Part shown: one piece after another, positions 6,937 to 15,300 of the stretch
How the letters are laid out: each line of letters opens with the position of its first letter
Numbering within the stretch: the stretch's first letter is position 1
Assembly (NCBI GenBank): GCA_043816005.1
Contig: JBDRIM010000073.1
Coordinates: 1-32,000, forward strand
Direction of reading: 5' to 3'
From: Candidatus Micrarchaeota archaeon
GTDB taxonomy: Archaea > Micrarchaeota > Micrarchaeia > Anstonellales > Bilamarchaeaceae
Length of the DNA: 32,000 bases
The notes under the pieces: model-generated
What the model was told of the DNA's origin: nothing
Database searches by the model: none
Seen by the model: the letters and a program-made list of their open reading frames with translations, nothing else
Program-made: the position numbers and the translations under genes

Positions 6937-7173
6937 ATGAATGATACAATTGCATTTTTGATAAAAAAACTTTCTAGTAAAAGTGTTATGGAAAGGAAGG
7001 AAGCAATAAAAGAACTTAAGCACCATGTCCAGAGTTCAGGAAATCACCTGGCAAGATTATCATTAGATTATATCTCAGAACATGATCCTTCTTATACAGT
7101 AAGAAATCTGGCAAAACAGGCACTATCCTCTCAAATAAAACAACCTGTATGGGAACGTACTCATCTCTTCTGA
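6937..7173 (+). CDS. small HEAT/PBS-lyase-like repeat protein
   Basis: 78 aa, starting 9 nt after the preceding stop. ERKEAIKELK and DPSYTVRNLAKQAL resemble HEAT_PBS repeats (D..x.VR..A..AL). Confidence 0.5.
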   Translation: MNDTIAFLIKKLSSKSVMERKEAIKELKHHVQSSGNHLARLSLDYISEHDPSYTVRNLAKQALSSQIKQPVWERTHLF

Positions 7174-7183
7174 CTAAAAGATA

Positions 7184-7193
7184 TTATATAAAA
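7184..7193 (+). promoter_or_regulatory. TATA-box-like element upstream of tRNA-Val
   Basis: ttatataaaa lies about 27-37 nt upstream of the predicted tRNA 5-prime end at 7221, the expected archaeal promoter spacing. Confidence 0.45.
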
Positions 7194-7220
7194 TCTATTG
7201 GAACATCATTCTGCTACTAT

Positions 7221-7559
7221 GGGCTCGTAGTCGATTCCGACTTTTTGGAAAAAAGTCGGCCAAAAACTTTTTGGTTAAACGACAATGGTAAGACGCCTGC
7301 TTGACATTTTCACCGTTTAGAAAACAACAATGTCGTGATACGACATTGTGCCCATAAAAACGAAAAATCGTTTTTATAGAGGGGTGAAACCAAAACGGTC
7401 TGTAAATGGCCGATCAAAAACATTTGGAAAGAGAGTTTTGATGCACATAATTGTTCGATCTCTCGAACAATTTGCGTCTTGAACGATTCATCGTTCAAGT
7501 ACGACTTTTTCCAAAAGTTGCAATGCAGGAGATACGCGGTCCGATTCCGCGCGGGCCCA
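7221..7559 (+). tRNA. tRNA-Val(GAC) with two insertions (about 7235-7283 in the D loop; 7307-7523 at position 37/38)
   Basis: Joining the exons by hand gives a 73-nt cloverleaf. Acceptor GGGCTCG/CGGGCCC, D stem GTCG/AGAC with G18 G19, anticodon stem CCTGC/GCAGG, loop TTGACAT. T stem CGCGG/CCGCG, discriminator A73. A T-run follows. The T loop TCCGATT is atypical at position 55. Confidence 0.65.
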
Positions 7560-7563
7560 AATC

Positions 7564-7575
7564 TTTTTTTATTTT
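7564..7575 (+). terminator. oligo-T terminator after the tRNA
   Basis: tttttttatttt begins 5 nt after the discriminator base. Archaeal RNA polymerase terminates at T-runs. Confidence 0.45.
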
Positions 7576-9264: not shown

Positions 9265-10879
9265 GTTTATTTCCTACTTTTTCTTTTATTGCCTTCATAA
9301 ATTCAACAAAAATTGGTGCAGGTTCTTCAAGCCTACTTTTTAGTTCGATGTGCGCCTGTGTTGCAACTCCAAAACTATCTTTCCATTCTGTTATTTCTAC
9401 AATATTATTTTTTTGATGAACTGCTGAAATAATTAGTCCATTTTCTGTAAGTTGTTTTACATATTCTGGATTTACTTCGTACCTATGTCTATGTCTCTCA
9501 TCAATCTTATCTTTTTTATACGCATTATAAGCAACAGTTCCCTTGGTTATTGCACATTCATATGCTCCAAGTCTCATGGTCCCTCCCATTCTTGAAATTT
9601 GTTGTTGCTCTGGTAGCATATCAATGACTGGATATCTTGTTTTTTTGTCAAATTCAGTTGAATTAGCACCATTCATTCCACAGACATTTCGTGCATATTC
9701 AACTACCATCAATTGAAGGCCAAGACACAAACCAATATAGGGCACTTTATTTTCCCGTGCATATTTTATGGCTTTTATTTTTCCTTCAATACCTCTACTT
9801 CCAAATCCACCTGGTACTAATATTCCATCGTATTTTTTCAGAACTGATGCTATATCCTCGGTTTTTTCAAGATCACTTGCTTCTAACCAACTTATTTCCA
9901 GTCCATAATTTACTGCTGCCGCTCCATGAACTAATGCTTCCTTGACACTAACATAAGCATCCTTAACTGCAGTATATTTTCCAATAATAGCGACCTTCAA
10001 TGGTCTGCCTTTTGGTTCTATAATGTGCTCCACTTTTTTATGCCATTCTTTCAAATCTGGTTCCTTAGTTGGATCAAGATCGAGTTGTTTTGCAAGTTGT
10101 TTGTAGAAATTTTGTTTTTCAAGAACTAATGGAAGTTCATAAACAGTACTTACAAGAGGATCATCAAAAACACTTTCTTCAGGTACATTACAGTAGAGGC
10201 TTATTTTTTTCCGTGATTCTTCAGTAAGTTTTTCCTGTTCACGTGTGATTATCATGTTTGGTTGAATCCCCAAACTTTGTAGGAGTCGTGTTGCTTGTTG
10301 TGTTGGTTTCGTTTTTGGTTCATTTGGACTCAAACTTGGGACATAAGTAAGTTGTATAAATATCATATTATCTCTTTCAAAATTAAGTTGCCTCATGGCC
10401 TCTATGAAATAACTATTCTCCATATCTCCAATCGTTCCGCCTACCTCAACAAGTACTATATCTGCAGCATTCTCCTTTCCAACATTCTGCACCCATTTTT
10501 TTATCTCATCAGTCAAATGTGGAACAAATTGTACGTCGCGTCCAAGATACTCGCCTCTTCGCTCCTTTTCAATAATCCTTTGGAATAATTTCCCTCCTGT
10601 AATGGAACACATTCCAGGTAGCGACTTATTGAGAAATCTTTCGTATGTTCCAAAATCCATATCAACTTCTGTCCCATCATCAAGAACAAAAACTTCGCCA
10701 TGCCTAAATGGATTCATTGTTCCACAATCAACATTCAAGTAGCCGTCAAATTTTATTGGCACTACTTTGTATCCCCGTGCTTCAAGTAATTTAGCTATAG
10801 AAGAAGTTACTATTCCCTTTCCTAATCCGGACATAATCGATCCGGCAATCACAATAAACTTGGTTTTTTTCTCTGGCAT
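9257..10879 (-). CDS. pyrG: CTP synthase
   Basis: 540 aa. N-terminal synthase domain (GSIMSGLGKGI, KTKPTQ) and C-terminal class I glutamine amidotransferase domain (GLCLGLQ, HRHRYEVN). Confidence 0.97.
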   Translation of the reverse strand: MPEKKTKFIVIAGSIMSGLGKGIVTSSIAKLLEARGYKVVPIKFDGYLNVDCGTMNPFRHGEVFVLDDGTEVDMDFGTYERFLNKSLPGMCSITGGKLFQRIIEKERRGEYLGRDVQFVPHLTDEIKKWVQNVGKENAADIVLVEVGGTIGDMENSYFIEAMRQLNFERDNMIFIQLTYVPSLSPNEPKTKPTQQATRLLQSLGIQPNMIITREQEKLTEESRKKISLYCNVPEESVFDDPLVSTVYELPLVLEKQNFYKQLAKQLDLDPTKEPDLKEWHKKVEHIIEPKGRPLKVAIIGKYTAVKDAYVSVKEALVHGAAAVNYGLEISWLEASDLEKTEDIASVLKKYDGILVPGGFGSRGIEGKIKAIKYARENKVPYIGLCLGLQLMVVEYARNVCGMNGANSTEFDKKTRYPVIDMLPEQQQISRMGGTMRLGAYECAITKGTVAYNAYKKDKIDERHRHRYEVNPEYVKQLTENGLIISAVHQKNNIVEITEWKDSFGVATQAHIELKSRLEEPAPIFVEFMKAIKEKVGNKLI

Positions 10880-13773: not shown

Positions 13774-14141
13774 TTTTTTCACCTGAAAGCAGCAGAGCCG
13801 CGTTAGCCGTTCATTCCAACAAATGGACGTTTCATCCCCTCAAAAAATGGGCCAAACCCATTTTCATTAAAGAAATACGTCCATTGTAGATCGCATGTGC
13901 TACAATTGTACCGCACATGGTAAATACATTTAGTCAATGTATTTATACTTTTCCCTCGAGAATGTGCCATTTGTTCTTTTTTTAGTCATTTTATGTCCTC
14001 ATTTTTTCGTCGTAAAACATCAAGTATTTAAATCATCGAAGGTGCCATTACTTACTCTCGTAATTGTTTCGTTAATTTTTTCGCATTGCGAAAAAATGAG
14101 AAACTGGGAGAAAGCGACCAAAATGATAAAAAGGTGAAACT

Positions 14142-15221
14142 ATGGAAGATTTGGTAAGATCGGTTGTTGGAGAAAATACGCCGCAAGCTGACAAACAGTC
14201 CTCTGATGCATTGAGTTCAGAGTGCATTAAAATCGTTACTGTCGGTGTGGGTGGTGCTGGTAATAACACCATTAACAGACTTATAAAGTCCGGAGTTAAA
14301 GGTACCGAGTTGGTTGCAGTTAACACTGACAAACAACACCTTAACATTGTTCATGAAAGAGCAAAGAAGGTCTTAATAGGTAAATCAGTTACCAAAGGTT
14401 TGGGTGCTGGTGGTTATCCTGACATAGGTGCAAAGTCGTGTGAAGTTGACAGGCCACTTGTTGAAAGAGAACTTGAAGGCGCTCATCTTGTATTTGTTTG
14501 TGCAGGTATGGGTGGTGGTACTGGCGGTGGTGCAGCTCCAATTATTGCACAAATTGCAAAAGAGCAAGGAGCAATCGTAGTTGCCATGGTTACCTATCCA
14601 TTTGCTTTGGAAAGAGCAAGAAAAAAAAGAGCAGAAGATGGTATTAAACTCTTGAAAAAGAGCTGTGACTCAGTTATTATTCTTGATAATAATAGATTGG
14701 TTCAGTTAGTTCCAAATTTGCCAATGGCAGAAGCATTTGCTGTTGCTGATGAGATTCTTTCAAGGGCAATTAGCGGTCTTGTATGGACCATCACACAACC
14801 ATCTTTGATTAATATCGACTTCGCAGATGTCCGTGCAATCATGGAAGGCGGAGGAGTTGGATTCATTGCAGTTGGTGAAGGTAAAGGAAATGACAAAGTC
14901 AAAGCAGCCGCAGAGGGTGTTATAAAGAACCGACTGTTGGATGTTGACTTCGAAGGTGCGAAAGGTGCACTTATTCACATTACTGGTGGTAGTGACCTCA
15001 CATTGGGAGATGCTATCAAAGCTGGTGAATGGGTAACCGAAAAGATGGATGCCGAAGCAAATGTCAAATGGGGCGCTAGAATTATGCAGAATTACGAAGG
15101 CAAATTAGAAATTGTTGCCATCGTAACTGGTGTAAAAGGTGCGTCAGTTGCAGGCTCATCGATGATTGAAGAAGAATCTGTTATGCCAACATACTCTTCT
15201 GACCTTGAAGTTTTAGGTTAA
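14142..15221 (+). CDS. ftsZ: cell division GTPase FtsZ
   Basis: Tubulin signature [12 protein letters not shown], plus VGVGGAGNN and NTD motifs. AGGTGA lies 5 nt upstream of the ATG. Confidence 0.95.
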
Positions 15222-15279
15222 AAACTTGAGGACCATAGAACGATTCGTCGTTCTATTGGACCTTGAAGTTTTAGGTTAA
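15201..15279. repeat. perfect 21-nt direct repeat of the ftsZ 3-prime end flanking a 37-nt hairpin insert
   Basis: gaccttgaagttttaggttaa occurs at 15201-15221 (last 6 codons plus the ftsZ stop) and again at 15259-15279. The insert contains ATAGAACGA-TTCG-TCGTTCTAT (15235-15256). Confidence 0.9.
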
Positions 15280-15300
15280 TTTTTTTTCTTTTCTATTTTT
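15280..15300 (+). terminator. T-rich terminator region after ftsZ
   Basis: A T8 run at 15280-15287 followed by cttttctattttt, immediately after the hairpin and repeat. Confidence 0.4.

Follow-up and report, generated by a model that had tools for sequence, protein, structure and literature searches.

The 32,000-nt stretch analyzed here (positions 1 to 32,000 of contig JBDRIM010000073.1, assembly GCA_043816005.1; referred to as the window) carries a gene for tRNA-Val(GAC) that is split into three exons by two introns, a short one in the D loop (intron 1) and a long one at the canonical position 37/38 (intron 2; cf. Table 1). A preliminary description of the window had singled out intron 2 as a chain of perfect hairpins and as a candidate stable intronic RNA. 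Our analysis revealed that intron 2 is a genuine intron of the familiar, presumably protein-spliced type, and the lineage is noted for tRNA genes with many interruptions; its 217-nt length, its hairpin-by-hairpin architecture, and the modular paralogy of two introns within one gene are unusual. The most probable account, though one well short of certainty, is that this bulge-helix-bulge (BHB) type intron grew by lineage-specific additions of hairpins to a conserved scaffold, and a function of the excised RNA is unsupported.

The host gene

Neither ARAGORN nor Rfam reported a tRNA in the raw window, and tRNA-Val(GAC) was called by ARAGORN after both inserts had been deleted. Since both programs missed the gene, the tRNA sets of DPANN genomes may be under-called. 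The host is a Candidatus Micrarchaeota (DPANN) archaeon, because the neighboring open reading frames (ORFs) of the window encode, according to Pfam, archaeal housekeeping proteins (aIF5B, PCNA, FtsZ, CTP synthase, and PheRS), an exact-pattern scan with the 3' exon matched genomes titled Candidatus Micrarchaeota or Micrarchaeia, and a neighboring 78-aa protein is 74% identical to a protein of Candidatus Bilamarchaeum dharawalense. The identification of the gene after removal of the inserts, together with its Micrarchaeota relatives, bore out the preliminary view that the insert is a tRNA intron in an archaeon.

Near-constant exons and variable introns in related genomes

Orthologous genes were recovered by way of the 78-aa protein, the adjacent methyltransferase, and DNA pattern scans from independent assemblies (NCBI, JGI, Logan, and ENA), and they are designated below by L numbers. 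The set comprised eight independent orthologous sequences (L023 and L024 counting as one), the partial L025 (part of the D-loop intron only), and further intron-free tRNA-Val genes. Both introns were found in L001, L003, L023/L024, L025 (partial), L022, and L002, and the D-loop intron alone in L028/L029, while tRNA-Val was intron-free in L004, L005, L009, L019, and L020, among many others, as was tRNA-Val(CAC) in L006 and further loci. The lengths of introns 1 and 2 were 50 and 217 nt in the window, 53 and 87 nt in L003, 140 and 57 nt in L023/L024, 152 and 41 nt in L001, 75 and 33 nt in L022, 27 and 27 nt in L002, 54 and 0 nt in L028/L029, and 0 and 0 nt in the intron-free group. The three closest orthologues share the 72 nt of exon sequence with the window. 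After splicing in silico, the tRNAs of the window, L001, and L003 were identical over 72 nt, and the tRNA body (D arm, variable loop, and T arm) was that of the intron-free tRNA-Val(CAC) of L006, with one differing position in the acceptor stem.

The introns showed no such constancy. Only the first ≈20 and the last ≈28 nt of intron 2 of the window could be aligned with the anticodon arms of L003, L023, L024, and L022, whereas its middle, including all four perfect hairpins (A1, A2, A4, and A5), was unique to the window, and none of these hairpins was found in any recovered orthologous tRNA-Val. The preliminary description had proposed a candidate stable RNA that, if functional, would belong to a class other than C/D guide RNAs, and had added that related genomes with the same tRNA but without this intron would speak against it. 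Such relatives do occur (L028/L029, L004, L005, L009, L019, and L020), and the others carry versions of 27 to 87 nt that share the splice-proximal scaffold only; a functional intronic RNA conserved among these genomes is not supported.

Further scans added little to this series. A metagenome scan with a middle-exon pattern gave no match, a second one with the 3' exon yielded 17 loci, all intron-free except L022, and scans of viral contigs with the module described below or with the 3' exon returned chance matches or nothing. Closer relatives were sought through FtsZ in five look-ups (P0012-P0016, 90-94% identical; P0021, 88%), and the contigs so obtained either do not reach the tRNA-Val locus or do not contain it.

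L023 and L024 come from two assemblies of the same species; of 940 nt compared, 2 differed, and these 2 are located in the intron 2 hairpin. Together, the changes, T to G and A to C (L023:2464 and 2471 versus L024; positions 187 and 194 of the gene), give rise to a novel G-C pair with the register shifted, as would be expected from template switching in a palindrome or from selection for pairing.

Structure of intron 2

An exact inverted-repeat scan showed that each of the four hairpins of intron 2 is a perfect 10-bp stem; the preliminary description had located them correctly and had counted 8-9 bp. All 40 of the 40 pairs are Watson-Crick, with neither a G·U pair nor a mismatch, unlike the scaffold helices, which contain G·U pairs and one mismatch. 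In the ensemble of the full pre-tRNA, the mean pair probability of the four hairpins was 0.80-0.98. Intron 2 alone folded at -75.3 kcal/mol, compared with -43.2 ± 4.3 kcal/mol for 200 dinucleotide shuffles, none of which was as stable (z = -7.5). Across the window, 14 perfect hairpins of at least 8 bp were counted versus 5.75 expected from Markov shuffles, and five of the 14 lie inside the 339-nt tRNA gene, i.e., in 1% of the window, where chance would place ≈0.06. The earlier remark that there is far more structure here than splicing needs was therefore well founded.

In the predicted fold, the helix of domain 1, which is homologous to the simple intron 2 hairpin of L003 (TTTACC..GGTAAA), encloses a 4-bp mini-hairpin as well as A1 and A2, so that these two hairpins sit in the loop of the 5' scaffold helix, while A4 and A5 are located between GUUUUGAU and the 3' scaffold hairpin. 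A longer-range pairing of ATCAAAA with TTTTGAT had also been suggested. Both sequences exist (7413-7419 and 7436-7442), but the probability of their pairing is ≈0, and the 15-bp helix of domain 3 wins over it. The acceptor and anticodon stems, all but one of the five T-stem pairs, and the splice helix of the D loop were present in the unconstrained minimum free energy (MFE) structure of the pre-tRNA (-123.2 kcal/mol), and enforcing the cloverleaf stems together with the D-loop splice helix brought the energy only 0.6 kcal/mol above the MFE. The added hairpins therefore self-fold and leave the tRNA body alone.

Two minor features of the intron may be mentioned. The segment CGACATTGTGCCCATA (7341-7356) is complementary at 12 of 16 positions to TATGGGCTCGTAGTCG (7218-7233; 5' leader, acceptor, and D stem), made up of correctly spaced runs of 7 and 4 exact pairs and one further pair, which is not distinguishable from chance. 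Small intronic ORFs (44 aa on the forward and 62 aa on the reverse strand) were judged to be by-products of the palindromes.

Table 1. Features of the tRNA-Val(GAC) gene and its introns, with positions in the window and the basis of each assignment (probabilities are pair probabilities in the predicted ensemble)
Feature	Positions	Strand	Basis or remark
Promoter-like block TTATATAAAATCTATTGG, TATA-like, ≈30 nt 5' of the tRNA	7184-7201	+	conserved in L001, L003, L023, L024, L025
tRNA-Val(GAC) gene of 339 nt (three exons, two introns)	7221-7559	+	ARAGORN, spliced identity to L001/L003, fold
Exon 1, 15 nt: acceptor 5' strand, U8 A9, D-stem 5' strand GUCG, A14 U15	7221-7235	+	
Intron 1, 50 nt, D loop (about position 15/16)	7236-7285	+	fold and D loop of L006
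Exon 2, 21 nt: D loop 3' part, D-stem 3' strand, anticodon stem 5' strand, U33, GAC, A37	7286-7306	+	
Intron 2, 217 nt, canonical position 37/38	7307-7523	+	BHB geometry at these cut sites
Domain 1: helix UUUCACC (7308-7314)/GGUGAAA (7383-7389) beside the 5' splice bulge	7308-7389	+	mean pair probability 0.84
Hairpin A1, ACAATGTCGT-GAT-ACGACATTGT, 10 bp, loop 3	7327-7336/7340-7349	+	probability 0.97; in no orthologue
Hairpin A2, ATAAAAACGA-AAAA-TCGTTTTTAT, 10 bp, loop 4, core AACGA-N4-TCGTT	7354-7363/7368-7377	+	probability 0.98; not in orthologues
CCAAAAC motif after the 5' helix	7390-7396	+	same motif behind the splice-proximal hairpin in L001, L003, L023, L024, L025, L028
Small imperfect hairpin CGGUC-UGUAAAU-GGCCG, one U·G pair	7396-7412	+	fold
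Second copy of the CCAAAAC-type motif, TCAAAAAC	7414-7421	+	
Domain 3: 15-bp helix 7419-7433/7505-7519 with one mismatch and one G·U; A4 and A5 lie inside it	7419-7519	+	probability 0.66-0.77
Hairpin A4, AATTGTTCGA-TCTC-TCGAACAATT, 10 bp, loop 4	7449-7458/7463-7472	+	probability 0.97; not in orthologues
Hairpin A5, CTTGAACGA-TTCA-TCGTTCAAG, 10 bp with loop 2 or 9 bp with loop 4, core AACGA-N4-TCGTT	7478-7487/7490-7499	+	not in orthologues
Terminal hairpin CGACUUUU-UCC-AAAAGUUG, alternative to the domain 3 helix	7502-7520	+	probability 0.03
Exon 3, 36 nt: U38, anticodon stem 3' strand, variable loop AGAUA	7524-7559	+	
Exon 3, continued: T arm CGCGG-UCCGAUU-CCGCG, acceptor 3' strand, discriminator A73	within 7524-7559	+	
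T7 run 3' of the tRNA gene, putative transcription stop	7564-7570	+	sequence

A module shared by the two introns

In all genomes with introns, introns 1 and 2 have in common a hairpin that stands directly after the 5' splice bulge and is followed by the motif CCAAAAAC. This module consists of a G+C clamp, a run of four to five T, an NGG-type loop, a run of four to five A, and the complement of the clamp, and then (C)CCAAAA(A)C. The clamp varies from one copy to another (CCGAC, TTTACC, CGCACC/TGCACC, and CCGCC) and is always paired. Over the aligned copies, 97.3% of the cells were paired, six of the ten pairs had changed on both sides, and no one-sided change was found. The covariation score was reached by none of 500 shuffles, and the signal was lost when the partners were slid. 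The scaffold formed by the module is under structural selection.

The relationship between the two introns is most apparent in L003, where they are almost identical over ≈35 nt at their starts, and intron 2 of L023/L024 matches intron 1 of L028. Moreover, long introns bear the module in reverse complement at their 3' end, as GTTTTTGG plus a hairpin with a CCT/TCC loop (L001 intron 1, L003 intron 2, and L023 intron 1), and the 3' end of intron 2 in the window, CGACTTTT-TCC-AAAAGTTG (7502-7520), is a degenerate hairpin of this reverse-oriented module. The preliminary description had noticed that positions 7502-7518 resemble the D-loop hairpin at 7237-7259 and had suggested that the two insertions are related. 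The resemblance is real (77% identity in a direct match of 22 nt, and perfect complementarity across 11 nt), and the common module, i.e., the clamped T-run/NGG loop/A-run hairpin followed by CCAAAAAC, together with the shared beginnings of the L003 introns, supports the view that introns 1 and 2 are paralogous and would have been built from one module.

A covariance model was built from the intron module and searched in the window and in ≈290 kb of related DNA. Outside tRNA-Val it gave one strong match in the ≈290 kb, after ftsZ in L038. There, right after the ftsZ stop codon (L038:3007-3035), AACTTTTT-AGT-AAAAAGTT is followed by TCACAAAAAC (31.5 bits, E ≈8e-5, a rough value).

Splice sites

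In BHB motifs at position 37/38, the central 4-bp helix takes in the first two anticodon bases and the bulges hold the splice sites (PMC4090602); following this rule, we placed the central helix (H) at positions 32-35 and the cuts after the second base of each bulge. For intron 2, the BHB geometry was then found at exactly 7306/7307 and 7523/7524, with an outer helix h of 5 bp (the anticodon stem), the bulges CAU and AAU, and an inner helix h' of at least 3 bp. Its central helix, UUGA/UUGC, has three of four possible pairs, one of them Watson-Crick and two G·U, and one mismatch. At the same positions, all four pairs of H are formed in L023/L024, next to a 3' bulge of 3 nt, and L022 and L002 have three Watson-Crick pairs, the motif of L022 being near-canonical. 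For intron 1, H is formed by GUCG (7230-7233) and CGAC (7280-7283), with the bulges AUU (7234-7236) and AAU (7284-7286), and the intron itself by two hairpins, 7237-7259 and CCAAAAA-C-UUUUUGG at 7260-7274. The MFE structure of this region shows GUCG, a 3-nt bulge, the two hairpins, and CGAC, with no outer helix. Cutting at AU|U...AA|U restores the D loop AUUGGUA, which is that of the intron-free L006; L006 and other intron-free tRNA-Val(CAC) genes have the same D arm, GTCG-ATTGGTA-AGAC. Across orthologues, positions 15 and 48 tend to covary, U15 occurring with A48 and A15 with U48.

We class the motifs of introns 1 and 2 as relaxed (HBh'/hBH-like). The half-motifs hBH and HBh' may occur separately as splice sites (PMC4090602), and in ARMAN-2 (Micrarchaeum), where 56% of the tRNA genes are disrupted, an epsilon-2 endonuclease cuts relaxed BHB motifs (PMC3239211).

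Other readings of the splice sites were considered and rejected. Shifted BHB registers with a stronger H (UGAC/GUUG) would give a 9-nt anticodon loop. The last 7 nt of intron 2 together with U38 read TTGCAAT, a perfect Cys(GCA) anticodon loop; the tRNA-Cys reading disagrees with the discriminator A73 and with the intron-free relatives, which read GAC, and the coincidence is lacking in L003, L023, and L022. A generic BHB scan within the intron was too permissive and was informative only at the true sites and at the flanks of A4. There (7442-7479), A4 is preceded by TGCA|CAT and followed by TGCG|TCT, which form a 4-bp helix with two 3-nt stretches, i.e., a BHB-like 3-4-3 arrangement, and the CAT stretch matches the bulge at the true 5' splice site. 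The arrangement around A4 may either have been left by a nested mini-intron or be due to chance.

Origin of the four hairpins

According to the account that we favor, splicing would need only a small conserved scaffold, made of a helix or hairpin after the 5' splice bulge (UUUCACC/GGUGAAA in the window; in relatives the T-run/A-run hairpin with its covarying G+C clamp), then CCAAAAAC, and, at the 3' end, a second helix or hairpin adjacent to the 3' bulge and to the central helix, which is weak. The four hairpins would be lineage-specific inserts, placed in two pairs (A1 with A2, and A4 with A5) into loops of this scaffold and tolerated since each self-folds; perhaps only such inserts are tolerable, as they would leave the tRNA body and both splice sites free to fold. 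The intron would presumably be cut by the broad-specificity endonuclease of the lineage (of the epsilon-2 type in Micrarchaeum), after which the exons would be ligated and the intron released, probably as a circle. The palindromes themselves may have arisen at the DNA level, by inverted duplication or template switching or because small palindromic units were inserted, and would have no function of their own. The four hairpins are consistent with young, DNA-level palindromes; we read them as young because their 40 bp contain no G·U pair and no mismatch, while the scaffold helices have both.

The locus agrees in many respects with known systems. As in the BHB introns of ARMAN-2 (Candidatus Micrarchaeum; PMC3239211), a member of the same phylum, there are two introns per tRNA, at 37/38 and at a non-canonical D-loop site, the predicted motifs are relaxed with 3-nt bulges and a 4-bp helix, and the exons make up a normal tRNA. 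A 2014 review gave 11-129 nt, with a median of 12-25 nt, for archaeal tRNA introns (PMC4090602), so that the 217 nt found here are well beyond that range. In further contrast to known BHB introns, h' is a multi-branched domain instead of a single helix, and the central helix of intron 2 is degenerate. The occurrence of the hairpin and CCAAAAAC module in both introns recalls the paralogous introns of Thermoproteales (Fujishima et al. 2010, per PMC4090602), which belong to a different phylum; here, the paralogy lies within one tRNA gene, and the module is also reverse-complemented at intron 3' ends. The addition of self-contained helices to scaffold loops with an undisturbed core fold is reminiscent of the expansion segments of rRNA, although the expanded RNA is in this case discarded after splicing, so the additions imply no function.

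Several observations weigh against the favored account. Perfect 10-bp stems could also reflect strong ongoing selection, and youth and selection are inseparable because no close relative carries the same hairpins; the nearest orthologues are distant, with neighboring proteins 68-74% identical. The H helix of intron 2 is weak and in the MFE structure gives way to a competing UUG/CAA pairing, which lengthens the anticodon stem and hides the 3' site, so correct splicing of the intron is assumed. Among the ORFs of the window that were compared with Pfam, none was identified as a splicing endonuclease gene. Four T5 runs, all intronic (7242, 7268, 7371, and 7506), occur in the pre-tRNA and might cause some premature termination, the archaeal terminator being an oligo-T tract. 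Finally, the core AACGA-N4-TCGTT is common to A2, A5, and a hairpin after ftsZ, and L028 has a comparable hairpin 25 nt 3' of its tRNA-Val gene, both of which hint at a recognized hairpin type or a repeat family.

These last two points lead to the alternative that fares best, though we regard it as unlikely, namely that the hairpins are small mobile or repeated palindromic units, or relics of nested mini-introns, in a permissive site. The core occurs in three exact copies in the 32 kb (A2, A5, and the hairpin after ftsZ at 15235-15256), and in four when one mismatch is allowed, versus 0.77 expected; three exact copies are few, and of 29 related loci, 27 had none, a single copy being counted in these loci. 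Between A5 and the ftsZ hairpin (15238-15253), 15 of 16 bases agree, but the corresponding BLAST match is not significant (E = 2), and the BHB-like 3-4-3 geometry that frames A4 has a chance of ≈1 in 10, given the five to six hairpins tested. No target-site duplications were read in the sequence flanking A1, A2, A4, and A5. Mobility would fit with the minimal introns of relatives, such as that of L022, which is one perfect hairpin plus a splice motif, with the presence of the module at two positions and in both orientations, with the module-like hairpin and CACAAAAAC after ftsZ in L038 (31.5 bits), and with the intron transposition documented in Thermoproteales (Fujishima 2010, cited in PMC4090602). 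Short, perfect, Watson-Crick-only palindromes, some with a shared core, are also seen in repetitive extragenic palindromic (REP) and miniature inverted-repeat elements and in the "perfecting" of quasi-palindromes by template switching; the likeness is an analogy only, as the window provides no established multi-copy family, no link to a transposase, and no target duplications. None of the hints at mobile palindromes or nested introns is statistically strong.

A wider proposal, which we put forward as speculative and improbable, is that a small palindromic module, which moves or is duplicated from one position or orientation to another, is the building block of Micrarchaeota tRNA introns, and that these introns grow hairpin by hairpin as self-folding palindromes or nested mini-introns are inserted, or else that the 217-nt circle has gained a lineage-specific function. 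If the former were true, the locus would capture the birth and expansion of an intron in progress.

We consider it doubtful, more so than mobility of the palindromes, that the excised intron, probably a 217-nt circle, is a lineage-specific, functional, stable non-coding RNA whose hairpins bind proteins or stabilize it. Such an RNA would explain the exceptional predicted stability (z = -7.5), the perfection of the hairpins and their high probability in the ensemble, and the fact that A2, A5, and the ftsZ hairpin share a loop-proximal core while their outer stems differ and are nevertheless always paired; excised archaeal tRNA introns are known to circularize, and that of tRNA-Trp is functional (PMC4090602, PMC12558985). 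Conservation argues otherwise, since all four hairpins are lacking in the orthologous tRNA-Val genes and several relatives have no intron or 27-87-nt versions of it. Covariation in relatives was seen for the splice-proximal module alone and for none of A1, A2, A4, and A5, which are absent from the orthologues. The lack of any G·U pair in 40 bp would also be unusual for old helices selected as RNA. As the preliminary description had stated, the intron (7307-7523) contains no C box (RUGAUGA; RTGATGA in DNA) and no D box (CUGA; CTGA) anywhere. The Rfam scan that it had called for turned up no family, either at the gathering threshold or at E ≤ 10, where only noise appeared (U5, CRISPR-DR33, and psbT-asRNA; E ≈1 or worse), and the search that it had recommended for additional copies of the intron found none by BLAST in the window and none in the ≈290 kb of related DNA. 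The tRNA-Trp intron that nests a box C/D guide RNA in Haloferax and other Euryarchaeota is likewise long and inserted at 37/38, and either could outlive splicing as a circle; the intron described here differs from it in having neither C nor D box, no Rfam match, and no conservation among relatives.

A self-splicing (group I or II) intron, or an artefact of assembly or chance, is already effectively refuted: bacterial tRNA group I introns do have a similar length and an anticodon-loop location, but there was no match to Intron_gpI or any other Rfam family at E ≤ 10, the intron ends in A and follows A37 (in group I introns, a terminal G and a U preceding the 5' splice site are expected), the host is archaeal and a second, 50-nt insert has a clear 4-bp helix with a 3-nt bulge, independent assemblies have introns at the same two positions, and five perfect hairpins in 339 nt compare with an expectation of ≈0.06.

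The locus bears on the origin, movement, and growth of archaeal tRNA introns, which are still unsettled. The tRNA-Val genes form a compact natural series, with near-constant exons, two positions occupied by one module, and introns of 0 to 217 nt, in which the constrained part of a long intron (the splice-proximal scaffold) can be separated from the free part, and they suggest that only self-folding insertions survive in a pre-tRNA. The series should be useful to specialists in tRNA processing and does not change the field.

Gene context and additional palindromes

The TTATATAAAATCTATTGG block is probably the promoter of the tRNA gene; in L001, it is inverted together with the tRNA cassette. 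The T7 run that follows the gene likely stops its transcription, to judge from its sequence. In L001, the cassette of promoter block and gene (10330-10650) is flipped relative to the window (7176-7575), while its flanks, the 78-aa gene and the methyltransferase gene, are unchanged; the window, L003, L023, and L028 share the opposite orientation. The 78-aa protein (window 6937-7173) adjoins tRNA-Val in the window, L001, L003, L023, L025, and L028. One source labels a homologue "HEAT repeats," and only nine homologues were found among 5.8 billion proteins.

The T loop of the tRNA, UCCGAUU (7540-7546), has C at position 55, as it does in L001, L003, L002, L022, L004, and L006, while it reads UUCGAUU in L023 and UUCAAUU in L028. 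To our knowledge, position 55 is nearly universally U (pseudouridine 55).

At the 3' end of ftsZ (window 15201-15290), an exact second copy of the last 21 nt of the gene, stop codon included, is located 37 nt downstream. The interval separating the copies holds a perfect hairpin and a segment that is complementary to them, and a T8 run comes after. The same layout was found in L035 (7340-7450) and L039 (8090-8200), the copies being more alike within than across genomes; in L035, the four differences between the copies are all at synonymous third-codon positions. After ftsZ in L036 and L038, there are a perfect hairpin and T-runs only. The ability of the complementary segment to pair with either copy suggests alternative 3'-end structures and perhaps a coupling of termination and translation.

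A perfect palindrome, TAAATACATT-N5-AATGTATTTA, is located upstream of a gene for a VapB-like antitoxin both in the window (13921-13945) and in L001 (601-625), and is probably an operator. Perfect 10-11-bp hairpins also occur just 3' of tRNA-Val in L002 (256-280) and L028 (2315-2338), and a hairpin followed by a T-run seems to be a common arrangement at gene ends in this lineage.

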